Origin: a virus
Taxonomy: Duplodnaviria > Caudoviricetes
Length of the DNA stretch: 63,048 nucleotides
Virus record (IMG/VR): IMGVR_UViG_3300049328_000002
Span: 1-63,048 of that record
Reading direction: 5' to 3' (one strand)
The notes below the pieces were generated by a model. That model searched no databases, had not been told where the DNA came from, and saw only the letters and a program-made list of their open reading frames with translations. Of the stretch, positions 8,697 through 55,111 are shown piece after piece (position 1 is the stretch's first letter; the number at the start of each line of letters is the position of its first letter). Both the position numbers and the translations under genes were made by a program.

Positions 8697-10739
8697 ATGG
8701 CCATTCGCAGATACACCGAACCGCGGCCGGAAGCCGTGTTCGACGTTGAGTGTTACATCGACTATTTCATGATCGGCTTCCGCGACATCGAGCGAGGTCG
8801 CACGAAGGCATTCGAATTTTACGACGGGTGCGGCCTCGATCGGCCTGGCATCGCGAAGCTACTCCGTCTTTGGCGCCTGTTCTCGTTCAACGGCAATCGT
8901 TACGACATGCTGATGTTGGCGGCAGCGATGAACGGCTGTGACAACGAGCAGCTTAAAGACATCAGTGATCGAATTATTATCGGCGGCTTGACCCCCTGGC
9001 AGTTTGAAGAGAAATACGGCTGGTCTCTGCCTGGTTTCATAGACCACGTCGACCTGATCGAAGTCGCGCCGGGCGTGGCGAGCCTGAAAATCTACGGCGG
9101 CCGGCTGCACTCGAAGCGCATGCAGGATCTGCCGATCGACCCTAGCGCGAACATCGCGCCACACCAGCGCCCGGTGATGGTCACGTACAACGGCAACGAC
9201 CTGGCCACGACCGCGGATCTGCGTCACGAGCTGCGAGAGCAGATCGCGCTGCGCGAGCGCATGAGCGACGAGTACGGCATCGATCTGCGCTCCAAATCCG
9301 ATGCGCAGGTGGCCGAGGCTGTCATCAAGAAGCAGATCGAACAGGAGCTCGGGCGCAAGGTCTACAGGCCCGACATCGAGCCGGGCTCGTCGTTCAAATA
9401 CCTGGCGCCGCGCTTCATCACCTTCCAGACGCCGCAGATGCGGGCGTTGCTTGATGATGTGAAGTCGGCGTTTTTCACGATCAACTACGACGGCACGGTG
9501 AAGATGCCGCAGATCCTCGAGTCCGCGAAGATCGCGATCGGCGATGGCGTCTACCGCATGGGTATCGGCGGTCTGCACAGCTCCGAGAAATCCGTCAGTC
9601 ACTATTCAGATGACGAGATCGGGATATACGACCGCGACGTGGCCAGTTACTACCCGATGCTGATCCTCGGTACGCAGCTCGCGCCGAAGCATCTCGGGCC
9701 GGCGTTCCTGAAGGTCTACAAGGGGCACGTCGATGCGCGCCTCGAGTGCAAAAAGCGCGGCGACAAGGCCGGCGCCAACAGCCGCAAGATCATGGTGAAC
9801 GGCACGTTCGGCAAACTCGGATCGCCGTATTCGATCTTCTACGCGCCGAACCTGATGATTCAGGTGACGATTACCGGGCAGCTCGCGCTGCTGATGCTGA
9901 TCGAATTGCTTGAGCTGGCTGGCTTCGAGGTGATATCGGCCAACACGGACGGCGTCGTAACGCGCGTCGAGCGCCATCGGAAAGACGACTTCGACGCGAT
10001 CCTTTTCGACTGGGAGCTCGCGACCGACTTCACCACGGAAGAAACGCAGTACCGCAGCCTGCATTCGCGCGACGTGAACAACTACATCGCGATTCCCGTC
10101 GAGGGCAAGCCGAAAACCAAGGGCGCGTACGCCCCATCCGGGCCGGGTCTGCCAGCCTCGAGCGGCCTGATGAAGAACCCCGCGAACGCTATCAGCGTGG
10201 ACGCCGCGGTCGAGTACCTGAAGGACGGCACGCCGCTATACGAGACGATCGAGTGGTGCGACGACATCCGCCGGTTCGTGAACGTGCGCCAGGTGAAGGG
10301 CGGCGCCGAGCGCGAAGGCGAATATCTCGGCAAAGCGATTCGCTGGTACTACGCGGAGGGCGTGCGCGGCGGTATCCATTACGTCACGAACGGCAATTCC
10401 GTGCCGAGATCCGAGGGGGCGATGCCGCTCATGGAGCTGCCCGATCGCCTACCCGACGATGTCGACTTCGACTGGTACGCGCGCGAGGCGGACGGGATCT
10501 TGCGCGACGTGGGCGTGAAGGCGCCGAAGCTGATCCAGCGCCGCATGGAGATGCGCGAGGGTTTCGCGCTCGCGCGCCTGCCCGACGCGAAGAACATCCA
10601 CACGGTCGACCTGTCGACGATGGTCGGCATCTGCGGCCAGGAGCTGAAGGGTCGACACGATAAATGGGTCGAGTACGACGAGAAACCGAGTGGGCATCGA
10701 GAGTGCCCAAAATGTGTTCGCGCGATGGGTGGCCTGTAG
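8697..10739 (+). CDS. DNA polymerase, family B, with 3'-5' exonuclease and C-terminal Zn-finger-like extension
   Basis: Exo motifs FDVE, FNGNRYD, YNGND; Pol motifs DVASYYP, KIMVNGTFGK, SANTDG. Confidence 0.9.
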   Translation: MAIRRYTEPRPEAVFDVECYIDYFMIGFRDIERGRTKAFEFYDGCGLDRPGIAKLLRLWRLFSFNGNRYDMLMLAAAMNGCDNEQLKDISDRIIIGGLTPWQFEEKYGWSLPGFIDHVDLIEVAPGVASLKIYGGRLHSKRMQDLPIDPSANIAPHQRPVMVTYNGNDLATTADLRHELREQIALRERMSDEYGIDLRSKSDAQVAEAVIKKQIEQELGRKVYRPDIEPGSSFKYLAPRFITFQTPQMRALLDDVKSAFFTINYDGTVKMPQILESAKIAIGDGVYRMGIGGLHSSEKSVSHYSDDEIGIYDRDVASYYPMLILGTQLAPKHLGPAFLKVYKGHVDARLECKKRGDKAGANSRKIMVNGTFGKLGSPYSIFYAPNLMIQVTITGQLALLMLIELLELAGFEVISANTDGVVTRVERHRKDDFDAILFDWELATDFTTEETQYRSLHSRDVNNYIAIPVEGKPKTKGAYAPSGPGLPASSGLMKNPANAISVDAAVEYLKDGTPLYETIEWCDDIRRFVNVRQVKGGAEREGEYLGKAIRWYYAEGVRGGIHYVTNGNSVPRSEGAMPLMELPDRLPDDVDFDWYAREADGILRDVGVKAPKLIQRRMEMREGFALARLPDAKNIHTVDLSTMVGICGQELKGRHDKWVEYDEKPSGHRECPKCVRAMGGL

Positions 10740-45335: not shown

Positions 45336-46571
45336 ATGTCTGTTCGCGCAGGTGGTCGTGTCGGGGGGCAGCGTTACGCTGCCAGCTCGACGTTCATGCC
45401 TTTAGCGGAACCCTTGATCTCGGCTCGAGTCGTGGTGCTGACGCCAGACTCGATCGAGGTGTATGTCACCACGCTAATTCCCGGCTACGGGGTTGTTGCA
45501 ATTGCGACTCGCGATACAGGTGCACCCACGGCGTCGCAGATCATTGATAATATCTCTGACGCAACAGGGACCGAATGCCCGTATGTGGCATTGACCGTCG
45601 TGCCGAGCGGCGAAACGTTAATAGGCACGATCGATCTGTCGACGCTTTCCGGCACTGGTCCCATATACGTTTGGATCGCCGGGGTCGGATTCGGTTACGC
45701 GGGTTATTCAAACGTGCTGGGCCCGACCGCCGTCGAAGATGACGTACCGCCGACGAAGATTCGCATCGCCTGCGGCCGTGTCGGTGGCGTGCGCTATGCC
45801 GGCCTCGGCTTCGGTGCTGCCGATAATCCGGTGGTGCCAACGAAGATCCGCATCGCCTGCGGTCGCGTGGGAGGTGTGCGCTACGCGGGTCTCGGCTTTG
45901 GTGCTGATGAGAATCCGGTGGTGCCGACCAAGCTGCGCATCGCCTGCGGCCGTGTCGCCGGTCTTCGCTATGCCGGCCGTGGCTTCGGTGCTGAAGAGAA
46001 TCCGGCGATCAACCTGGAGTTCGCGTTCGAGCCCTACCTGAACGACATCAGCTGGCACGGCTTCTCGATGATCGGCGAGGTGAACTACGACGCGGTCGCC
46101 TCGCTGGTCGTGACCGCGTTCGACGCCGAGCAGCCGAGCGACAGTGAGTTCGATGAAAGCCTCGAGCAGATGGCTGTCACAGGTGGCGATGTGTTCTTCT
46201 TCGAGCACACAGGCGAGCCGGAACCTGCGCTGCGCCGCGCGTGGATGCAGGTGCGACTCGGCGCTCAGCGCATCCTGTATTCCGATCTGGCGCTCTTGCC
46301 GCACGAAGACTTCGAGCAGGTGAGCGTCACCGACACGTCACCGTACGGCCTGCGCTTCGAGCCGCCGATCGCCGTCAACGAGATCTTGTCCTGGGGTAAC
46401 GTGGTCGGCAGTGGCACGGTGAACATCAACGAGGATACGACGTACGACGTGGACTATCGCGTCAAGGCGTTCACCGTGTACGTGGGGAATTACGAAGAGG
46501 GCTGGCGGGCCAGCGACACGCTGTTTCTCAGCGACATCACGAACGCGCTGTTCGTTGCGATGGAGCTCTAG
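45336..46571 (+). CDS. Hypothetical protein with three 29-aa repeats
   Basis: Last gene of the late operon; contains the repeats below. Confidence 0.75.
   Translation: MSVRAGGRVGGQRYAASSTFMPLAEPLISARVVVLTPDSIEVYVTTLIPGYGVVAIATRDTGAPTASQIIDNISDATGTECPYVALTVVPSGETLIGTIDLSTLSGTGPIYVWIAGVGFGYAGYSNVLGPTAVEDDVPPTKIRIACGRVGGVRYAGLGFGAADNPVVPTKIRIACGRVGGVRYAGLGFGADENPVVPTKLRIACGRVAGLRYAGRGFGAEENPAINLEFAFEPYLNDISWHGFSMIGEVNYDAVASLVVTAFDAEQPSDSEFDESLEQMAVTGGDVFFFEHTGEPEPALRRAWMQVRLGAQRILYSDLALLPHEDFEQVSVTDTSPYGLRFEPPIAVNEILSWGNVVGSGTVNINEDTTYDVDYRVKAFTVYVGNYEEGWRASDTLFLSDITNALFVAMEL
45750..46004 (+). repeat. Three 87-bp tandem repeats (PTKIRIACGRVGGVRYAGLGFGA.ENPVV)
   Basis: Units at 45750, 45837, 45924, with mostly synonymous divergence. 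Confidence 0.9.
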
Positions 46572-46789
46572 CGACGCTCGAACGTACGCTTGCGAGGCAC
46601 GAGTGCGTTGAGAGCGTCGTACCATTCCCGTTTTGTCAATTCGCGCACTTCGATCAGCGGCAGTGTCGGCTCGCAGTGCCGCGGATTGGCGTCAGGCTCA
46701 ACGTCGCAAACAACTAAGCTGGGGCAATGGAATGCTTGCGTGTATCCATCACCGTCCATGCGTTCACCGCAGCCGTTGCAGATCATCAT
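46568..46789 (-). CDS. Small Cys-rich hypothetical protein
   Basis: CNGCG...GDGYT..HCP; GGAG RBS; ATGA coupling. Confidence 0.65.
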   Translation of the reverse strand: MMICNGCGERMDGDGYTQAFHCPSLVVCDVEPDANPRHCEPTLPLIEVRELTKREWYDALNALVPRKRTFERR

Positions 46790-47169
46790 TTCTCTCCGTT
46801 GACGCACCCAGGGCACTTATCTTTGCTGTCGTAGGTCATTTCGCCAACCCAACCTGCCGCGATAGCATCTTGGCGTAGGCGATGCGCTTCCATAACCCCA
46901 TAGCCTCGTTGCGGATGAACCGCAGCAGGCTTGCCGCGATACTCGGCACCGCAGTAGTCGCAGTTCAAGCAGAGCTGCCCGTCAGCCATTGGATTCTCCT
47001 TCCCGCTGATTAATTCGTTGATAACCGACTCGCGGTCTGCCTCGATATCAGCATCGTCTCGCATATCGTCGCCGCACCCATGGCCGCGATCCCAGGCTTT
47101 TCGCAGCAGCTCGCGCAATTCCCTATCTGTGAGAATCTTCATTTCGTACGGCTCGATCTCGCCAGCCAT
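46786..47169 (-). CDS. Hypothetical protein with C-terminal Zn ribbon
   Basis: CDYC...CPGC. Confidence 0.65.
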   Translation of the reverse strand: MAGEIEPYEMKILTDRELRELLRKAWDRGHGCGDDMRDDADIEADRESVINELISGKENPMADGQLCLNCDYCGAEYRGKPAAVHPQRGYGVMEAHRLRQDAIAAGWVGEMTYDSKDKCPGCVNGEK

Positions 47170-47310
47170 TCCAACTGCAGCCAGGTGAGCAGCCCTGGTG
47201 CCCGCAGATCGGGACCGATCCAGCCGAACTCACGACGGCAGTAGGTGCGTGTGCCGATGGTGATTTGTATGGGGTCTTTCATATCTCACTCCTCGCGCTG
47301 TGGTTATCTG

Positions 47311-47547
47311 TCATTTCGCTTTCCAACCTCCGTCACGATATTCGCCGTCAGTCAGCGAGACGACGTATGTTGCTTTCGTTCGCCAGCTCGCGTCGCACTC
47401 GACGCACACGACATGACTGTAGTCACTCGGCGTGTAGTGTCTGCCGTTAAACGCGGAGTAGTTGCACAGCCGATCAATCACCAGCCAGGCGCGTTGCGTG
47501 ATCGGCTTTTTCTTTTCAGGGCACTTGCAGGAGGGGCCGCCGCTCAT
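47311..47547 (-). CDS. Small Cys-rich hypothetical protein
   Basis: GGAGG RBS; CKC...SAFNG..TPSDYS...CVEC. Confidence 0.7.
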   Translation of the reverse strand: MSGGPSCKCPEKKKPITQRAWLVIDRLCNYSAFNGRHYTPSDYSHVVCVECDASWRTKATYVVSLTDGEYRDGGWKAK

Positions 47548-47810
47548 CACGCATTCCCTCCCGTGTGCGCGAGCAGAGAATTGACAGCTTCGCGATTGCC
47601 GGTCTGTATGTTCTCGGTGACGAGCTTCATCACCATATCGGTCGTGTATTTGGTCTGGTCTTGGAGCGCGATGACCTGGCCGACGAAGTGCGAAAGGATG
47701 GCGAGAATTTCTTCGGCGGTGAGCTCGAGACCGCCTTCGCGGATCGACTGCTCGAGCGCCTTCCTGAACTTCAGGTGCCGTTCGTCGGGGGTGACGATTT
47801 TCGTTTTCAT
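47547..47810 (-). CDS. Hypothetical protein
   Basis: GGAG RBS before MKTK. Confidence 0.75.
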   Translation of the reverse strand: MKTKIVTPDERHLKFRKALEQSIREGGLELTAEEILAILSHFVGQVIALQDQTKYTTDMVMKLVTENIQTGNREAVNSLLAHTGGNA

Positions 47811-47835
47811 TGTTGTTCTCCGAAGAATCTGGATG

Positions 47836-47986
47836 GCGGCAGCAGGCGTCGTCGTACAGCAGTGACGCGGTAAGATCCCGAGAGATCTGTTTGAAGTACC
47901 TTTCACTCGGGTCGCCGTGGTGAGTGGCGTTCAAGGCACGGGCACCATCCCGTTCTAACCTACCCGGCGACGACGCCTGCCACCGC
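47836..47986 (-). ncRNA. Candidate structured RNA / 5' leader
   Basis: 19-bp closing stem with G-U pairs on the minus strand; internal hairpins. Confidence 0.4.
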
Positions 47987-48000
47987 ACGAGGCTAGTAAA

Positions 48001-48035
48001 TCACCTCTTTGTTGACTCTGTCAACCATTTGTGGA
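48001..48035. promoter_or_regulatory. Tandem TCAAC-N5-GTTGA boxes (20-bp period)
   Basis: TCACCTCTTTGTTGA at 48001; TCAACCATTTGTGGA at 48021. Confidence 0.7.
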
Positions 48036-48044
48036 ATCGAGGAT

Positions 48045-48359
48045 CTACAAAGAATCGCCTTCGAAGAAGATCCGTTGCCTCGACAGGTACTCGTGCCGCG
48101 CCAGCTCGATGCACCCCTGGCCGTCTGCGGTGTCGTCCAGTCGTTCACCGGGCAGCGTTGTGAAGAAGCTATCGCTCTCCGGGTGCTCCCAGTAGCGCAC
48201 ACCGGGCAGGTCGTGCTCGATGTGCAGGTCGTGCAGCAACGCGTGCAGCGCTGTGAGCAGGCCGTGCTGCGCCTCGCGCGGCGTCGAGCGCACGGCTTCA
48301 AGGTTCGCCCATTTACGGAGTAGTGCTATGCCGTGCGCCCGATCGTCGGCGTATTTCAT
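48045..48359 (-). CDS. Hypothetical protein
   Basis: AGGAGG RBS; RYWEHPESDS motif. Confidence 0.7.
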   Translation of the reverse strand: MKYADDRAHGIALLRKWANLEAVRSTPREAQHGLLTALHALLHDLHIEHDLPGVRYWEHPESDSFFTTLPGERLDDTADGQGCIELARHEYLSRQRIFFEGDSL

Positions 48360-48625
48360 TTTGGTGTGTCCTCCTTAAAGACAATGAATGTTTCGAATAT
48401 CCAGCCGTCCAGCTTGCCGAGTTGCGGCGGGGCAAAGGACGGACGCCCATTAGGGTAGCGACTGTCTTTAACCTCGATCCTTTCCTGAGTCAGCTTTAAG
48501 CCGCGGGCATCGAGCGCCTGACGATAACGCTGATTCCAGAACTGATCGTCGCCACCTTTTTCCGCTTCGCGCCATGCAGCGCGCACATGCTGCTGGTAGT
48601 CAGCAGGGTTGGCTTTGGTCGTCAA
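48356..48625 (-). CDS. Hypothetical protein (paralogous to the C-terminal half of 51403-51909)
   Basis: GGAGG RBS; WNQR...AL..RGL...D.RYP. Confidence 0.7.
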   Translation of the reverse strand: MTTKANPADYQQHVRAAWREAEKGGDDQFWNQRYRQALDARGLKLTQERIEVKDSRYPNGRPSFAPPQLGKLDGWIFETFIVFKEDTPK

Positions 48626-49132
48626 TTAATGAACCCTCCCTGGCGATTCGATGTTGCTGATGTCGTCATACGACATTCGTTTTCTCGTGTTGATCATACC
48701 GCGTGCAGTACGTAGTTCAGCACGTACTCTCATAAGGATTTCACCGAGTTTATTTTTGCCGATGCCGTTGCAGGTGCCCCAATACCAGTCGTTCCAGGTG
48801 TTCACCTCGACGATAACTAACTCACCCGTGTCGATCATCTTCTGTTCCAGCTTCGGATCGCGGAACTTACTGCGTACAAGAGTGAGCATGATTTCAAACC
48901 GTGCCTCGCTCCAATCGTCGCGTCTGTTTGATAGCAGCATGCCGAGCTGCTTCGCCTTGGCCGGACCTTCCGCTCGACTGATCACGTAGCGCGCCTGCTC
49001 ATCAAACGTCTTTGCAGCCTGGTAAGCGTGCTCAACGGTGAAGTAGGTCCGGCCTTCGAACTCGACGTTAGCTGGATAGAAGTTCGACAGGAATTTGTAC
49101 TGTCCCTTTAACCCGAAAATCCCCGTGCTCAT
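48626..49132 (-). CDS. NADAR family (YbiA-like) hydrolase
   Basis: FLSNFY, TVEHAYQAAK, D.YWG, G.N.LG.ILMRVR. Confidence 0.92.
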   Translation of the reverse strand: MSTGIFGLKGQYKFLSNFYPANVEFEGRTYFTVEHAYQAAKTFDEQARYVISRAEGPAKAKQLGMLLSNRRDDWSEARFEIMLTLVRSKFRDPKLEQKMIDTGELVIVEVNTWNDWYWGTCNGIGKNKLGEILMRVRAELRTARGMINTRKRMSYDDISNIESPGRVH

Positions 49133-49397
49133 GTTGAGACTCCCTCGCTTTCTTGATTTGTCGTCGCCAGAAGTCAGAGTGCGCACGTAGCGACTTCGGC
49201 CCTTTGACCGCCGCGCGTGGTGGCGCATCGCCGTTAAGTCGTTCGGGCGCTAAAAGGATCTGCACAGCCAGGCAAATCACCTGAAGCGCTCGCGTGCTGG
49301 AGATGCCGTGCGCTGCCGCAGCCTTGCCCAGCGTCTCTCCGTTAAGTGTGCGTTCGATCAGATCTAGCGACCGAGCGAAGTCCTTCACGCCGCTCAT
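49068..49397 (-). CDS. HTH protein (sigma region 4-like)
   Basis: GETLGKAAAAHGISSTRALQV; start uncertain. Confidence 0.55.
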   Translation of the reverse strand: MSGVKDFARSLDLIERTLNGETLGKAAAAHGISSTRALQVICLAVQILLAPERLNGDAPPRAAVKGPKSLRAHSDFWRRQIKKARESQHEHGDFRVKGTVQIPVELLSS

Positions 49398-49558
49398 GTC
49401 GCGTACTCGGGCAATTCTGTGATGCAGTGCAGCATCGTCATCTCCGTGCGTTGTGTACCCTTGCCGAGAGGTTGCCACAAGACGAACGCCATTCCCATAT
49501 TTAGGGAATCACCTATCTCCTAGCTAGAAGCCGGCGGTCATTTGCATGGACCGCCGAT

Positions 49559-49801
49559 TTGAAGCAACGCCACAGCAGACGCCACAAGGCTTTACGAGCA
49601 ATTCTGAAAGAGACCCGGTTAAAAGCCGGCCTGCGCCAAATTGATCTTTGCAAGCGCCTGGGGCGCGACAAGAACTACGTCTCGCACATCGAAGTCGGCG
49701 ACCGCATGCTCGATGCGCTCGAGTTCATCGACTACGCGGAGGCGCTTGGCGTGCAGGCCGCATGGTTGATCACCAAGTTGAAGCGGCGCGGGCCGTTCTA
49801 G
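49559..49801 (+). CDS. XRE-family HTH regulator
   Basis: LKETRLKAGLRQIDLCKRLG...YVSHIEVGDR.LD..EF. Confidence 0.85.
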   Translation: MKQRHSRRHKALRAILKETRLKAGLRQIDLCKRLGRDKNYVSHIEVGDRMLDALEFIDYAEALGVQAAWLITKLKRRGPF

Positions 49802-50214
49802 TCCGTACTCGCGAAGCCAGTGTGCTTGCTGGCCATGTGGCTCGCCAGGTTCGCGAACGTGCGGTTGCAGCACGGGCATACACCGGCTGCGACGCGGTTC
49901 TTCAATCGCGTTTTAGCCGCTTTCTGCGCACGCTCTCGATGACTCGCCATCTTCGCTTCAGCTTTCGCCGCAGCCGTGCGTTGCCGCTCGCGTGCGATCT
50001 CCGCGTCCTGCTGCTCGACTCGCGCTCTGAGTCGTTCCGCTTCGGATTTGCTGCCATACGCCTGGCCGTGTCCGAACGGGCAGTAGAGCCTCTCGTGGGA
50101 ATTGCGCAATCGACTGTCCGTCCGGTCGTCAACGGCAAAGACGACGTGACAGCTGCAGCACTCGATCGTGACGAACTTAATGCCTATTGCTAACCCGTAG
50201 CCGGTTGCGCTCAT
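49798..50214 (-). CDS. Zn-finger / coiled-coil protein
   Basis: CCSC, YCPFGH, CPCCNRTF.NL..HM..KH. Confidence 0.8.
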   Translation of the reverse strand: MSATGYGLAIGIKFVTIECCSCHVVFAVDDRTDSRLRNSHERLYCPFGHGQAYGSKSEAERLRARVEQQDAEIARERQRTAAAKAEAKMASHRERAQKAAKTRLKNRVAAGVCPCCNRTFANLASHMASKHTGFASTD

Positions 50215-50786
50215 GGTTGCACCGCCCGCCGGGAGAAGGTTGTTCGCGCTCTTCGAAATATCCCCAGCGTTAATTTACTGAAGTCATAATCAAGCGATGC
50301 GATTCGACGCTCGTCTGCCCATATTGGATGAGTGTCTTCGATAAACTGCGCGAACGGTTCCAGCGCTTTTTCCAACTCGACGATGCGCGCTTTCAGTTTG
50401 CCGATCTCCGACACACGATCGCGCCAACCGGGAATAAAATGATCGAGTTCTTCTGTTGCGAACCCACCGCGGCAGTTACAACCTTCGAGATCGACGAGTG
50501 CCTTCTGTTCGCCGTATTGTTTGCAGTAGGAGTCGTACGCTTCAAGGTGCATTGACCACGGGATACCTGGCGCATACCCCTGCACAGGCGCGATCTTTTC
50601 GACCGGCAACTTAGCGATGCGATCGAGGTCGGCGTACATATCACGCATCGCCTTCAGCTCGTGCTCGTGGTGCAAGCGATCGTCGGCGTCGGCTTCCAAC
50701 TCGATAAGACGTTGAAGCGCGCTCTGCCATGCGTCGCGATGTGACTCAAGGTTGTCGGGTTGAATTTTCATCACGTCAGTCCTCAC
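50211..50786 (-). CDS. Hypothetical protein
   Basis: Coupled ORF, 191 aa. Confidence 0.7.
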   Translation of the reverse strand: MRTDVMKIQPDNLESHRDAWQSALQRLIELEADADDRLHHEHELKAMRDMYADLDRIAKLPVEKIAPVQGYAPGIPWSMHLEAYDSYCKQYGEQKALVDLEGCNCRGGFATEELDHFIPGWRDRVSEIGKLKARIVELEKALEPFAQFIEDTHPIWADERRIASLDYDFSKLTLGIFRRARTTFSRRAVQP

Positions 50787-51406
50787 AGTTCGTCGTCATC
50801 GTCGACAGTGACAGGCTCGTCCTTCGGCACGTTGAACTTCGCGACGAAGTCCTTGCCGCGAAACCCCTTCATCGCAGCGGCGATCTTCTGCATGCCGTAG
50901 CTGACGATCAGCGCCTGGAATTTCGCATCGTCGAGCGCGTTGTGGGCCGTGCCGACATCCTTCACCTCGCGGCCGGTCATCTCAGCCAATTCGATGAGCG
51001 TGCGTACGTCGCGCGTCTTCGTGAAATGCCAAGGCTCGGCCAGGCCGACAGACCGATAGGCTGACTTGAGCCAGGCGCCGTCTTCGCACGGACCCTTGAA
51101 CCAGACTGTCGGCACGTCGGCGCTGCGGATGGTGGTGCCGATCACGTCGAGCGCTTCGCGCAGCTTGACCTTGCTCGGCTTATCGCTGAACACGTCACGC
51201 GCGACCGGCGATTGCGTCACCCACCAGCGCAGCGTACTGCCGTCGATATGCCCGTGCCTGATCGTGTCGTCGATGTCGATCTCGAAGTATTGCTGGCCAC
51301 CGAGCTTGCCGGTCTCGGGATCGAAGCGGACGACGCCGATCGACAGGATGGCCGGGTTGTTGGTCGAGACGCCCAGGGTCTCGCAGTCAATGCTGAAGTG
51401 GTTCAC
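50783..51406 (-). CDS. DEDDh 3'-5' exonuclease (Rv2179c / ExoVIII-like)
   Basis: IDCETLG, ILSIG, TLRWW, RDVRT, HNALDDA. Confidence 0.88.
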   Translation of the reverse strand: MNHFSIDCETLGVSTNNPAILSIGVVRFDPETGKLGGQQYFEIDIDDTIRHGHIDGSTLRWWVTQSPVARDVFSDKPSKVKLREALDVIGTTIRSADVPTVWFKGPCEDGAWLKSAYRSVGLAEPWHFTKTRDVRTLIELAEMTGREVKDVGTAHNALDDAKFQALIVSYGMQKIAAAMKGFRGKDFVAKFNVPKDEPVTVDDDDEL

Positions 51407-51909
51407 GAGTGTTGGTCCTCAGTGGGTTTGAATACGATGCAACTACCCTTCGGCCATGGGGGCTCGAATCCCGGCTGCACGCTGAAAGGTTCGGGTGCCT
51501 TGTATGCGAAATCGCCGGGGTAGCGCGGATCGCGCTCTGCGTTAATCGGTCCAATCTGCAAACCGCGATTTTTCAGCGCTGCGATGAACCGCTGATTCCA
51601 CTTCTCGTCAGAGTGGCCTGCAACTCGCAGTGCCTCGCTGAGCAGTTCCCTGTATGTATCTGCCGGGATGTCTTTCAGGTCGCCGTACGGCACGTTGTTG
51701 CATCGGGCTTTGACCCCGCAATGCGAACAGGCATCGAAAGTCACGTAGACGGTCCCCGCGCTCTTGCCGGTACAGTGAACCAACCCCGTCGCGCCGGCAG
51801 GGATCACAGTGCCGCCCGTTGTAATCTCGCGCAGCAGTTCGACGCGCACGCCGACCCAGTCGCGCGCGAATTTTTTACCGCCGTATTTGCCTTTCGCAGT
51901 TGTGCTCAT
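51403..51909 (-). CDS. Hypothetical two-domain protein
   Basis: SH3-like/CxxC N-terminus; C-terminus paralogous to 48356-48625. Confidence 0.7.
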   Translation of the reverse strand: MSTTAKGKYGGKKFARDWVGVRVELLREITTGGTVIPAGATGLVHCTGKSAGTVYVTFDACSHCGVKARCNNVPYGDLKDIPADTYRELLSEALRVAGHSDEKWNQRFIAALKNRGLQIGPINAERDPRYPGDFAYKAPEPFSVQPGFEPPWPKGSCIVFKPTEDQHS

Positions 51910-52205
51910 AGCTCATCGAACTCTCCGTGAAGGCGCCAGAACCGCACGCCGGGTTGCTGGTAGATCTCGTCGCACTCGACTTCCCGCATCGTGTGCGCGA
52001 GCCCTTCGTTGTTCAGCGGCTTGCGAATGAAGTCCATGTCAGGCTTCTTCACCCCCTGGACGAAGAACGACTGGCCGGGCCGCATAGCGGCGACTCGGTC
52101 GACGAGCTTCACCAGGGCCGGGTTGCGCAACTTGGTCTTCAGCTTCCGGGTGGCACGCCGAATGGGCACGCCGTCTTCAACGACGATTTCGCCTAGATCT
52201 CGCAC
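51906..52205 (-). CDS. Small basic putative DNA-binding protein
   Basis: GGAGAGGA RBS; MRPGQSFFV...GVRFWR. Confidence 0.65.
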   Translation of the reverse strand: MRDLGEIVVEDGVPIRRATRKLKTKLRNPALVKLVDRVAAMRPGQSFFVQGVKKPDMDFIRKPLNNEGLAHTMREVECDEIYQQPGVRFWRLHGEFDEL

Positions 52206-52272
52206 TGCTGTCCTCTCCGTCTCAGTGAATCCCCCGCGGCCGGGATGGCGGGCGGGGGTGGTATCGACCTGG

Positions 52273-53814
52273 CTAGGTGGCCGGTCGGTTTGAAGTTTTT
52301 CGCGGGCGCGACCGCCCGTCGTTCAGGTTCCGGGGTATATGCCGACGTAGCACGCCCCCGCTACCATCGTGTATACCCCTGCCGCCGCCAACGGCGAGCA
52401 GGAGGTTGTACCAGTGGACCTCGGCCCACATGCCCCTTTCATCGGGCGTGCAGCGGATCTTCCCCACCAGTCGTTTCAACACGTCGCGCGCAGCCTGGAT
52501 GTCATCGCTGTTCAGGATCTCGCGCATGCTGCTCACGGCCGCGCGCCAGGCGCTCTCGGTCGGCCACGGCAGATCCACGGTTGGCGGCGGCGCCGTTCGC
52601 GCGGCGAGAGCTCGTCGCTTCGCTTCAGCAATGGCCGGCGCCATGATATCGGCCGACACCGTGCCAGCCCGCACCATCGCTTCCAGGGCGGCGACTTCGC
52701 GGTCAGCCGCGGTCTCAGGGTGGGCCAGCTCGCGTTCGGCCTTTGCGCGCTCAATCCGCAGCATTTTCACCCCCTCGTTGATCGCCTCCGGTGACAGCAT
52801 CTCGGCGATCAGCGGCTCGAGGACAGCCGCCTCGATCACCTTGCGCGGGATCGACGCTGAGTTCGTGCAGGCGTACTCGCCGCCGGCCTTGAAGGCGCTG
52901 CATCCATACCGGCGGTTCTTCCCGCCGAACACGACCATCTTCTTCTCGCAGATCCCGCACTCGAGCAGGCCCGACAGCGGATACGTCGCCGTGCGGTCGA
53001 ACTTCGTCCGGCCCACAAAGCGGCGTTGAACACGCGACCAGGTGATCTCGTCGACCCAGGCTTCGCCCGGCTGCACGATCCATTGCTCGCGCGGCCGTTC
53101 GCGGCGTACGCGCTTGCCGCTGTCCGGGTCTTTGAACCACTGGCTCTTGTTCCAGACCACGCGGCCGATGTACTTCTCGTTCTTCAGGATCGCGTGCAGC
53201 GCCGACACGAGCCACTTGCCGCGCACCCCGCACCGCGGTTTCCAGTTCGCGCCAGGTGACGGGATCTCACGGCGGTTGAGGTCGTGCACGATCGCCTTCA
53301 GCGTCTCGCCGTCCGCGTAACGCCGGAACACCTCTTCGACGATCTCGCGGTTGTCGTATGCCTTGCCTCCGGTCGGCCGGCCGGCGAGCGCCCGCATCTC
53401 AAGCGCGGATCGCGTGCGGTCGGCGACGGTGGTGCGGAACTCTTCGGACATGATGCCGCTCATGCCGGCCTGCATGCGGGCCGTACGGGAGTCGCTGTCG
53501 AAGCCGTCCTGCACGGCGAACACGCGCACGCCGCGGAACTTCAACCTGGACAGCATCGGCGCGAGATCCTGCGATCGGCAGAGCCGGGTGAGGTCCATGA
53601 CGACCAGTACATCGCCGGTCGACAGCGCGGCCAGGGCTGCTTGCACACCAGGCCGGTTGCCTGTCGCCGCGCCGCTGATCCCTTCGTCGCTGAACTCGCC
53701 GCCGATCGACAATGAGCGTTGGGCGGCGAACGCGCGGCACACGCGCACCTGGTCGAAGATCGATTGCTCGTCTTGCATGTCGGTGCTGAAGCGGGCGTAG
53801 ATGATGGCTTTCAT
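52273..53814 (-). CDS. int: Large serine recombinase (integrase)
   Basis: YARFS catalytic Ser, DEGISG, RPG, DLTRL.R; recombinase domain; Zn ribbon LSGLLECGIC...YGC; coiled coil. Confidence 0.95.
   Translation of the reverse strand: MKAIIYARFSTDMQDEQSIFDQVRVCRAFAAQRSLSIGGEFSDEGISGAATGNRPGVQAALAALSTGDVLVVMDLTRLCRSQDLAPMLSRLKFRGVRVFAVQDGFDSDSRTARMQAGMSGIMSEEFRTTVADRTRSALEMRALAGRPTGGKAYDNREIVEEVFRRYADGETLKAIVHDLNRREIPSPGANWKPRCGVRGKWLVSALHAILKNEKYIGRVVWNKSQWFKDPDSGKRVRRERPREQWIVQPGEAWVDEITWSRVQRRFVGRTKFDRTATYPLSGLLECGICEKKMVVFGGKNRRYGCSAFKAGGEYACTNSASIPRKVIEAAVLEPLIAEMLSPEAINEGVKMLRIERAKAERELAHPETAADREVAALEAMVRAGTVSADIMAPAIAEAKRRALAARTAPPPTVDLPWPTESAWRAAVSSMREILNSDDIQAARDVLKRLVGKIRCTPDERGMWAEVHWYNLLLAVGGGRGIHDGSGGVLRRHIPRNLNDGRSRPRKTSNRPAT
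52332..52379. other. attP: Putative attP inside the integrase 3' end; contains the tRNA-like 3' end GCCCCCGCTACCA
   Basis: 48-bp dyad: GGGGTATA/TATACCCC and GTAGC/GCTAC share one centre (CC at 52355-52356). Confidence 0.75.
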
Positions 53815-54119
53815 GGGGCGACCGCGTACGAGGTGAATTGATTTTCTTCGTGGCCTTTGATCAACAGTTGCACACGGTCAGGATCTTCCCAGTCCATACT
53901 GCGAACCGCTTCGATTAACCAGTCGCGATCGAGATAATTGAACGCGCCCGCGTAAACATCGCTTTCCATCACCTTGTCGCCACCGGCGTGATGATCGATT
54001 CTAACCAATGGGCGATCATGCTTCACCGTGATCTTTTTGTTCAATAGGTCGACGGTAGGCGTGGTATCGCAGCGGTCGAAAATTCCCGTGATCAGAATGA
54101 CATCGGTCACGACGGACAT
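53811..54119 (-). CDS. Hypothetical protein
   Basis: GGAG RBS; ATGA coupling to int. Confidence 0.75.
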   Translation of the reverse strand: MSVVTDVILITGIFDRCDTTPTVDLLNKKITVKHDRPLVRIDHHAGGDKVMESDVYAGAFNYLDRDWLIEAVRSMDWEDPDRVQLLIKGHEENQFTSYAVAP

Positions 54120-54195
54120 TTCAAAGACTCCGGCAAGGGCTTGGGACGCATGGCGGCTCGGGCGATGATGCGCATTAACTCTAACAACTCAGGGC

Positions 54196-54447
54196 TCATA
54201 ACTCATCCTCGGCCATCAGCTCGTCAATGAAACGGTTGCGCCGCACCTGGTGCTGTCGCTGCTCATACTGCTCACGGCAACGGCGGCACAGCTCGTCACC
54301 TAATGGCGCGCAGGCACCGCACTGGCATTTCGGCTGATCGTGACTTGCGTCGCTACGCTTTTTGTATTCAGCGTAATGCTCGACACAGCGATCTTTCTTG
54401 AACACGGGCTCGCTACAGCAGTCACGCCGACAGAATTTTCGAGCCAT
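54196..54447 (-). CDS. Small Cys-rich protein ending EDEL
   Basis: Multiple Cys/His; TAATG coupling. Confidence 0.7.
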   Translation of the reverse strand: MARKFCRRDCCSEPVFKKDRCVEHYAEYKKRSDASHDQPKCQCGACAPLGDELCRRCREQYEQRQHQVRRNRFIDELMAEDEL

Positions 54448-54872
54448 TATAATTTCACCTCGGGCGGCAGTGGATTCTCAGCGCGGTACTGCGCGACGGT
54501 CTTGCCGAAGTGCTGCTCGGCGCAGGGCTTGCAGTACCACTCGCTGCAATACAGGCACTGGTACATGAAGAGGACTGCACGAGTAGCGCCGCATCGGCAG
54601 GGCATCGTTCCGAGGCGGATGTTCACGCCGGCCGCAGCCTGGCGAACTGTTTCGCGCTTCTGCTCGGCGATGAACGAGAACTTTTCGATCCACTGCGCTT
54701 CGTCGAATTCGGGTTTGGTCTGCTCGCGGAGTCTTGCCGCGACAGCATTTACGCCCTCAACAATTGCCGACACAATCGCCATGTCGGCGCCGTATTGACG
54801 TGCCGCGCCAAGGGCAACGTTGTGGAAACAATCCAGCGCTTCGGCTAATTTCCCTTGGTCAATCTGACCCAT
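54447..54872 (-). CDS. Hypothetical protein with C-terminal Zn finger
   Basis: CRCG...CLYC...CKPCAEQHF. Confidence 0.7.
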   Translation of the reverse strand: MGQIDQGKLAEALDCFHNVALGAARQYGADMAIVSAIVEGVNAVAARLREQTKPEFDEAQWIEKFSFIAEQKRETVRQAAAGVNIRLGTMPCRCGATRAVLFMYQCLYCSEWYCKPCAEQHFGKTVAQYRAENPLPPEVKL

Positions 54873-55111
54873 CACTTCGATCCTCGATAAATCATGTAGA
54901 CAGCTTGAGCCGCACACTCCCACGCACGTTTGCTCTGCTCGTCCATGTGCGACCAGCGCAGGTGCGGCCCGTTCTTCTCGACGCCGCGGACATGCGGGAA
55001 GCGCGACTCGTAGAACGCTTCCATCGCAACCTGGCCGAGCGGCTTTGCGCCGGCATCGCCATGTGACTGAACGGGCTGCTGCGGACGGCCGAGGTTTTCG
55101 AAGTTGTTCAT
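54872..55111 (-). CDS. Hypothetical protein
   Basis: LGQVA.EAF...W......WE..A motif; coupled. Confidence 0.65.
   Translation of the reverse strand: MNNFENLGRPQQPVQSHGDAGAKPLGQVAMEAFYESRFPHVRGVEKNGPHLRWSHMDEQSKRAWECAAQAVYMIYRGSK

Follow-up and report, generated by a model that had tools for sequence, protein, structure and literature searches.

A phage large serine integrase gene whose last codons very probably carry the phage attachment site, matched to the 3' end of initiator tRNA-Met

Unidirectional DNA insertion is done mainly with serine integrases, whose natural sites are generally described as an intergenic phage attachment site (attP) and a bacterial attachment site (attB) within a protein-coding gene, as is the case for the integrases Bxb1 and PhiC31. 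Integrases of the SSV1 type are reportedly archaeal tyrosine recombinases with a tRNA target, where integration splits the integrase gene (int) in two rather than trimming a short tail, and mycobacteriophage BPs is said to carry its attP within the repressor gene, the integration brought about by its tyrosine integrase altering the repressor C-terminus and removing from it an ssrA-like degradation tag, in what is called integration-dependent immunity. For the Myxococcus phage Mx8, part of a review describes an attP within int and a new int 3' end, with altered specificity, that arises on integration (PMC6070905), and passages of the Islander paper state that the Mx8 and SSV integrases extend across attP and that, as of 2015, no serine integrase was known to have a tRNA gene as its target (PMC4383910). 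In Dehalococcoides, the serine recombinase DsiB overlaps attP/attL (attL and attR being the two junctions of an integrated element) antisense to the 3' end of the transfer-messenger RNA (tmRNA) gene ssrA, and a section of that account points out that the stop codon and the C-terminus depend on the integration state, with a possible regulatory role (McMurdie et al. 2011, PMC3146451). Here we analyse the virus record IMGVR_UViG_3300049328_000002 (hereafter the window, namely the whole record, a single contig of 63,048 bp flagged as viral, with 59% GC), and in particular its int gene; we consider it very probable that a 48-bp dyad inside the last 35 codons of this gene is the attP of the serine integrase of a temperate phage, 13 bp of which are identical to the 3' end of the host initiator tRNA-Met gene.

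The window represents a complete, high-coverage free phage genome of its integrase family: in one soil metagenome run, possibly the one it came from, the contig spanning the int region has a depth of 206 and the same form as the window. No tRNA genes were found in the 63,048 bp. The features concerned are these:

52273–53814, minus strand: gene for a large serine integrase of 513 aa, free-phage isoform (open reading frame (ORF), Pfam, and AlphaFold2 (AF2)/Foldseek)
52332–52379, no strand: proposed attP core, an imperfect dyad of 48 bp with 15 of 23 positions symmetric (inverted repeat and related sites)
52354–52366, plus strand: 13 bp, GCCCCCGCTACCA, equal to the acceptor strand plus ACCA of an initiator-type tRNA-Met 3' end (sequence identity)
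52355–52356, no strand: proposed crossover dinucleotide CC (GG on the int strand), within codon G487 (centre of the dyad)
52276–52353, minus strand: tail codons 488–513 (VLRRHIPRNLNDGRSRPRKTSNRPAT), found in the free-phage isoform only, with R-I-stop predicted after integration (replacement seen in relatives)

The preliminary description of this DNA had placed a dyad with outer and inner arms around a CC centre in the last codons of int, and its coordinates proved exact. On the plus strand the outer arms are GGGGTATA (52332–52339) and TATACCCC (52372–52379), which span 8 bp each, are 100% complementary, and lie 32 nt apart in the inverted-repeat listing, and the inner arms are GTAGC (52347–52351) and GCTAC (52360–52364). 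The dyad covers codons 479–495 of the 513-aa integrase, whose product ends ...HDGSGGVLRRHIPRNLNDGRSRPRKTSNRPAT, and the int strand across the tRNA-like block, GGT AGC GGG GGC, encodes G484-S-G-G487; the 13-mer GCCCCCGCTACCA occurs only once in the window. A second inverted repeat, of 27 nt and 70% complementary (52229–52255 and 52312–52338), flanks the int stop codon on both sides and extends into the left outer arm of the dyad, and the gap between int and the gene after it holds a G+C-rich hairpin.

Judged from its sequence and modelled fold, the integrase is a large serine recombinase. Pfam assigns it a Resolvase domain (PF00239, residues 3–146, E 1.3e-27), a Recombinase domain (PF07508, 156–266), and a Zn_ribbon_recom domain (PF13408, 279–333); in family alignments of 40 and 115 sequences, R8 and S10 are nearly invariant and the zinc-ribbon cysteines C286, C289, C305, and C316 are invariant. 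The AF2 model built on the 115-sequence alignment has a mean predicted local distance difference test (pLDDT) score of 86.9 and shows the long helices of a coiled coil at 324–407, and in Foldseek it matches the Bxb1 and PhiC31 integrase–DNA complexes along its full length. All of its domains are of the serine recombinase type, with none of the chemistry of the tyrosine recombinases. Deposited phages offer no close relative, given that megablast of 51000–55000 against 50,697 phage records returned no match and a protein search of the same 50,697 records gave no integrase match above 35% identity.

The identity of the target emerges from related loci, of which 80 were drawn from bacterial genomes and 80 from viral contigs by an alignment-based scan, and 2 more were single-protein matches, giving 162 (numbered L below; two contigs are counted twice); a single-protein scan of the bacterial-genome contigs had yielded no relative, but the alignment-based rescan did find relatives. 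Classes were assigned by local tblastn and ARAGORN, with the strict antisense core pattern TGGT[AT]GCGGGG. The int stop codon lies within an antisense tRNA-Met(CAT) gene in 47 of the 162 loci, and in another 77 no complete tRNA was called at the stop but the antisense core is present in the last codons; these loci represent free attP forms, hybrid sites, or viral contigs that had been trimmed at the tRNA. One locus has the core in sense orientation, 20 have no core under the strict pattern, and 15 are cut by contig ends. Read on the int strand, the tRNA genes beside the related integrases read TGGTAGCGGGGGCAGGATTTGA... and are identical to the window core at 13 of 13 positions, and those of the closer relatives, namely Gammaproteobacteria, Steroidobacteraceae, and Woeseiaceae metagenome-assembled genomes together with Povalibacter uvarum, read TGGTAGCGGGGGCAGGATTTGAACC..., so that the last 13 bases of these tRNA genes equal window positions 52354–52366. 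The same 13-mer ends the tRNA in L003, L004, L008–L013, L016, L023, L050, and L079. The core was thus correctly proposed as an initiator tRNA 3' end, and the base that had been left open as A or T is T. The tRNAs of the closer relatives carry a GGG/CCC anticodon stem, which we take to be typical of initiator tRNAs, so that their tRNA-Met is presumably of the initiator type.

The family is not confined to these lineages, and counts hundreds of representatives across Gamma-, Beta-, and Alphaproteobacteria, Terriglobia, Bdellovibrionota, and Opitutaceae. At two distant loci (L037 and L057, about 30% identity) the stop codon falls inside an antisense tRNA-Leu(CAG) and an antisense tRNA-Phe(GAA) gene, respectively, one locus each, which suggests retargeting within the integrase family. 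The recombinase of Rhizobium phage RR1-A (L168, JF974314.1, 24035–25666), 31% identical, ends ...RVVAGERFEQSPQIILGRFVA with TGGTAGCGGG in its last codons, and it may share the design of an int-embedded, tRNA-directed attP, at another tRNA.

That the site lies inside int, as had been proposed, is borne out by related integrated elements (L079 and the genomes G001, G003, and G004) in which both junctions fall exactly at the core. In L079, a 1.2-Mb contig whose integrase is 69% identical over its best segment, the 13-bp core occurs twice, at 674 and 9407, 8.7 kb apart. The copy at 9407 comes after integrase codons and runs into the tRNA; at 674 a hairpin-rich, terminator-like host flank leads into the core, and beyond it stands CGTGCTAC..., the first 8 bases of which are as in the window. 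The two phage-side halves bear matching outer arms, CGGGTAGAT and ATCTACCCG, at a window-like distance from the same GG centre. In an exact search, four of five genomes had the 13-mer in pairs on one strand, 8.7, 10.6, 18.8, and 26.7 kb apart, with a tRNA junction in every pair, and a reversed-pattern control gave 0–1 hits per strand; the 13-mer flanks elements as a direct repeat in G001–G004. By eye, comparison of far and near junctions shows arms symmetric about the same GG in G001 (Povalibacter uvarum DSM 26723) and G004, and in G003 the junction repeat extends to 18 bp. Extra core copies with free-type flanks are present in bacterial or metagenome contigs (L197, which holds both sense and antisense cores, L016 at 3798, and G002:C8, that is L167); these resemble tandem or hybrid sites left by repeated insertion.

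Both 3' ends of int exist in nature. The preliminary description had predicted that the prophage enzyme would end in GSGG-RI and had suggested a search of bacterial genomes for such integrases next to tRNA-Met; they are there, since the int frame continued through the tRNA reads GGC AGG ATT TGA, or G-R-I-stop, and GSGG-RI-stop lies inside the tRNA in L003, L004, L079, and others. Among them is a cultured type strain, Povalibacter uvarum, in which a core-flanked element of 10.6 kb (G001:C1:872441–883081; L012, L163) carries an integrase that ends in GSGG-RI-stop within tRNA-Met. Two contigs of one metagenome assembly, L179 and L180, are identical at 300 of 300 nt upstream of the core and then split, the former having a free-type tail (GSGGRIRHLL...) and the latter a tRNA-terminated end (GSGGRI-stop), and from these sequences they are read as two natural 3' ends of one int gene lineage, in which the tRNA identity is 19 bp. 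Among 120 listed homologues (P numbers), 51–100% identical, from a search of 5.8 billion proteins, GSGG is found near the C-terminus in 84, and the exact C-terminus GSGG-RI in eight (P0005, P0009, P0065, P0085, P0101, P0102, P0109, and P0118). The remaining GSGG homologues have variable tails of 2–38 residues, or 7–38 if P0117 is set aside, an outlier of 589 aa with its sole GSGG at its own C-terminus; the nearest homologue overall is P0002, 82% identical.

As for the point of strand exchange, symmetry was scored in 47 unique related sites with no recognisable T-arm following, and in 30 of them the best centre is GG at core positions 11–12, the centre that had been put forward for the crossover. 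The arm sequences differ widely between sites yet remain complementary (in the window, GGGGTATA/TATACCCC; in L161, gtagataacc/ggttatctac; in L150, tctctgggtg/cacccggaga), as predicted for a dyad bound by dimers, and the centre falls in the stretch common to phage and tRNA, which is a requirement for serine recombinases. We therefore hold 52355–52356 to be probably the dinucleotide that is cut.

It is the DNA, not the peptide, that is conserved, because at the DNA level the core is read in at least three combinations of frame and orientation: as GSGG in antisense frame 2, as VAGA in antisense frame 1 (e.g., L128), and as ARPRYQ on the sense strand (L083, L182). Integrated VAGA forms read ...VAGxGFEPxTF[GR]L-stop, the stop being the antisense of the anticodon loop. 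Two further endings, PPLP (7 proteins) and APATN (3 proteins), fit the remaining frames of the sense strand by back-translation only, and two viral-contig scans and a metagenome scan yielded no DNA for either class; with these, 115 of the 120 homologues sort into five classes of core frame and orientation. In the alignment consensus, G-R-W precedes GSGG and I-H-L-P follows it, both from reverse-complementary dyad arms. In L090, for example, G-R-W comes from the arm ggtagatgg and I-H-L from its complement ccatctac; since complementary arms encode these residues, part of the apparent protein conservation mirrors the DNA site.

Several observations weigh against the assignment of this dyad as attP. 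Taken alone, its symmetry is not significant and lies within the range of chance: a score of at least 15 is reached at 15 of the window's 63,000 centres, compared with 2–11 in 20 mononucleotide shuffles, and perfect 8-bp arms at the same spacing occur at five centres in the window. The dyad becomes significant because it coincides with the unique tRNA-identical 13-mer and with the comparative data. In L179, whose shared block is longer, symmetry about GG is poor by eye, on account of which the crossover position may differ between lineages. Neither an attL nor an attR junction of this phage appeared over 50500–54500 in contigs of three soil runs, where the contigs of the probable source run (X1) and a 188-nt contig of another (X2) span 52355 as an intact attP, with no joints or loose ends there; contigs hide rare forms, and the absence of junctions from them is therefore silent rather than negative. 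No close prophage copy of this phage was found either, the nearest integrase in a bacterial genome being that of L079.

If the dyad is attP, integration would follow the established scheme for large serine recombinases, in which integrase dimers would bind attP and the tRNA-borne attB, both sites would be cut at the central CC, and rotation and religation would join phage to host. At one junction the tRNA gene would still end correctly, its 3' end then coming from the phage, and at the same junction int, running antisense into the tRNA, would end in G-S-G-G-R-I-stop and lose its 26-residue tail. The tail codons, together with the early genes downstream (52205 to about 46.3 kb), would pass to the far end of the prophage.

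The int gene lies within a long block on the minus strand. The small ORFs upstream have no family matches, and one of them (53811–54119) overlaps the start of int. Downstream, in addition to a phrog_7200 protein, the following were recognised:

46338–52205, minus strand: genes co-oriented with int and downstream of it (ORF list, family matches)
50783–51406, minus strand: Rv2179c-like 3'-5' exonuclease (family match)
48626–49228, minus strand: NADAR protein (family match)
49559–49801, plus strand: helix-turn-helix (HTH) gene of the HTH_3 family, inside the minus-strand block and 2.5 kb from int (family match)

Downstream of int, the genes from 52205 to about 46338 share its orientation and would therefore move to the opposite end of the prophage, in line with the earlier proposal that integration would cut genes at 46.5–52.2 kb off from upstream promoters. 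The only sigma-70-like promoter match in 45.5–56 kb lies just upstream of the HTH_3 gene (49472–49801), whose product is a candidate immunity regulator. The same scan of 45.5–56 kb gave no promoter-like site on the minus strand, and terminator-like sites there were at the level of shuffled sequence, both of which are uninformative for a soil phage of 59% GC. PHROGs and Pfam searches of 11 neighbouring ORFs recognised no directionality factor, and there was no second resolvase-domain protein among the 10 neighbouring ORFs scanned.

Among other explanations, the one that survives best accepts the attP as real and takes the changed C-terminus to be a neutral consequence of the position of attP, the tail having no role and the isoforms behaving alike, and to this we give only slightly less than an even chance. 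Tail length and sequence are highly variable across homologues, the linker that leads to the tail (473–485) is modelled at a pLDDT below 50, and the prophage isoform must by logic still support excision, a lysogen having no other copy of int. The window tail, which is partly shared with P0002, also lacks the [IL]P-x-S-[ST]-R motif that is common in relatives. A C-terminal motif of the type [ILMV]P.[STR][STK][RK] nevertheless recurs in all five frame and orientation classes (43/84, 8/10, 6/11, 6/7, and 3/3), which speaks for a role, and AF2 places a beta-strand at 489–494, within the tail, with a mean pLDDT of 81 for the block 491–500. Over 22 tail codons of one subfamily (L091, L095, L096, L100, and L102), nonsynonymous change (pN) is below synonymous change (pS) in 10 of 10 pairs, the pairs being few, non-independent, and confounded by the constraints of the attachment site, and in Mx8, as part of the review describes it, a comparable change alters the behaviour of the integrase (PMC6070905).

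It is improbable that the embedded site is vestigial, the phage being lytic or plasmid-like and the tRNA match an inherited relic. Such a view could draw on the attP form being the only one found, at the depth of 206 in the probable source run, and on the lack near int of any recognised directionality factor or repressor apart from the HTH gene at 49559–49801, but it has to contend with a 13-mer that matches the tRNA end without a mismatch, an intact integrase ORF with all of the catalytic and zinc-ribbon residues invariant in the family, and intact dyad arms. A true attP at some other position, such as an intergenic region, with the dyad and the tRNA match being coincidental, is very unlikely indeed: 14 other centres in the window equal or exceed this symmetry, but the 13-mer is unique in the window, and in more than 120 related loci the tRNA core occupies the same place at the int 3' end, with the junctions exactly there.

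If attP is embedded in int as we propose, a functional switch between isoforms is a testable hypothesis, for which the modelled beta-strand of the tail and the pN below pS in one subfamily are weak hints. The window tail ends in ...SNRPAT, which is not recognised as a degradation tag, and the free-form tails of a sister subfamily end in -LAA (L007, L091–L100, L102, L112, and L117; e.g., ...FSKLLAA and ...ANRLAA) or, in L108, in -LSA. We take the -LAA ends to resemble C-terminal degrons of the ssrA type, and integration would remove them. Speculatively, and with more doubt than confidence, one may picture an undescribed and very large family of phage serine integrases, proteobacterial and other, with an initiator tRNA gene as attB and an int-embedded attP, in which the enzyme could sense the state of its genome, free or integrated: the tail of the free form (a docked beta-strand and a basic tail in the window, -LAA in the sister subfamily) would tune integration activity or stability, and the transcript of the tail-less prophage form (GSGG-RI) would run antisense into a strongly expressed tRNA gene, giving control of directionality or of expression with no need for extra regulators.

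The integrase family of the window departs from both of the rules that hold for the usual sites of serine integrases, its attP being intragenic and its attB lying in a tRNA gene. This attB is among the most conserved of bacterial sequences and could provide integration tools with a broad host range, and the integration-dependent C-terminus offers a directly testable hypothesis of regulation in a serine system, for which the 10.6-kb element of Povalibacter uvarum DSM 26723 is a possible laboratory model. In the literature we found no account of serine integrases whose attP lies within int and whose target is an initiator tRNA gene, and cases may be listed in the supplementary tables of Islander and TIGER; the window is a clean and complete free-phage example of a widespread, little-described arrangement.

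Set beside the known systems, the window integrase is like Bxb1 and PhiC31 in its set of domains, its fold, and its short dyad attP, and like the SSV1-type integrases in having attP inside int. The analogy with BPs that had been drawn earlier is a loose one: a C-terminus is changed at an intragenic attP in both, but the gene affected here is int, not a repressor gene, and the only HTH gene nearby (49559–49801, on the other strand) is 2.5 kb away. Mx8 IntP/IntX, as far as the passages cited above describe it, resembles the window in that attP lies within the int ORF and integration creates a new int 3' end; its integrase is a tyrosine recombinase, whereas the window has a large serine recombinase, a simple dyad site, and an initiator tRNA target. 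DsiB, as portrayed in the section cited above, is likewise a serine recombinase whose 3' end runs antisense over the 3' end of the target RNA gene, as in the 47 tRNA-Met loci here. In that same section, its target is the tmRNA gene ssrA with an identity block of 20 bp, compared with tRNA-Met(CAT) for the window family and 13 bp in the window; it is CcrB-like and has a small companion recombinase, DsiA, whereas none was found among the 10 neighbours scanned in the window; and the ssrA islands of Dehalococcoides are not phages, whereas the window is one. The closest precedents are thus Mx8 IntP/IntX, for a tyrosine recombinase, and DsiB, for a serine recombinase at a tmRNA gene, both of which stand closer to the window than BPs does.

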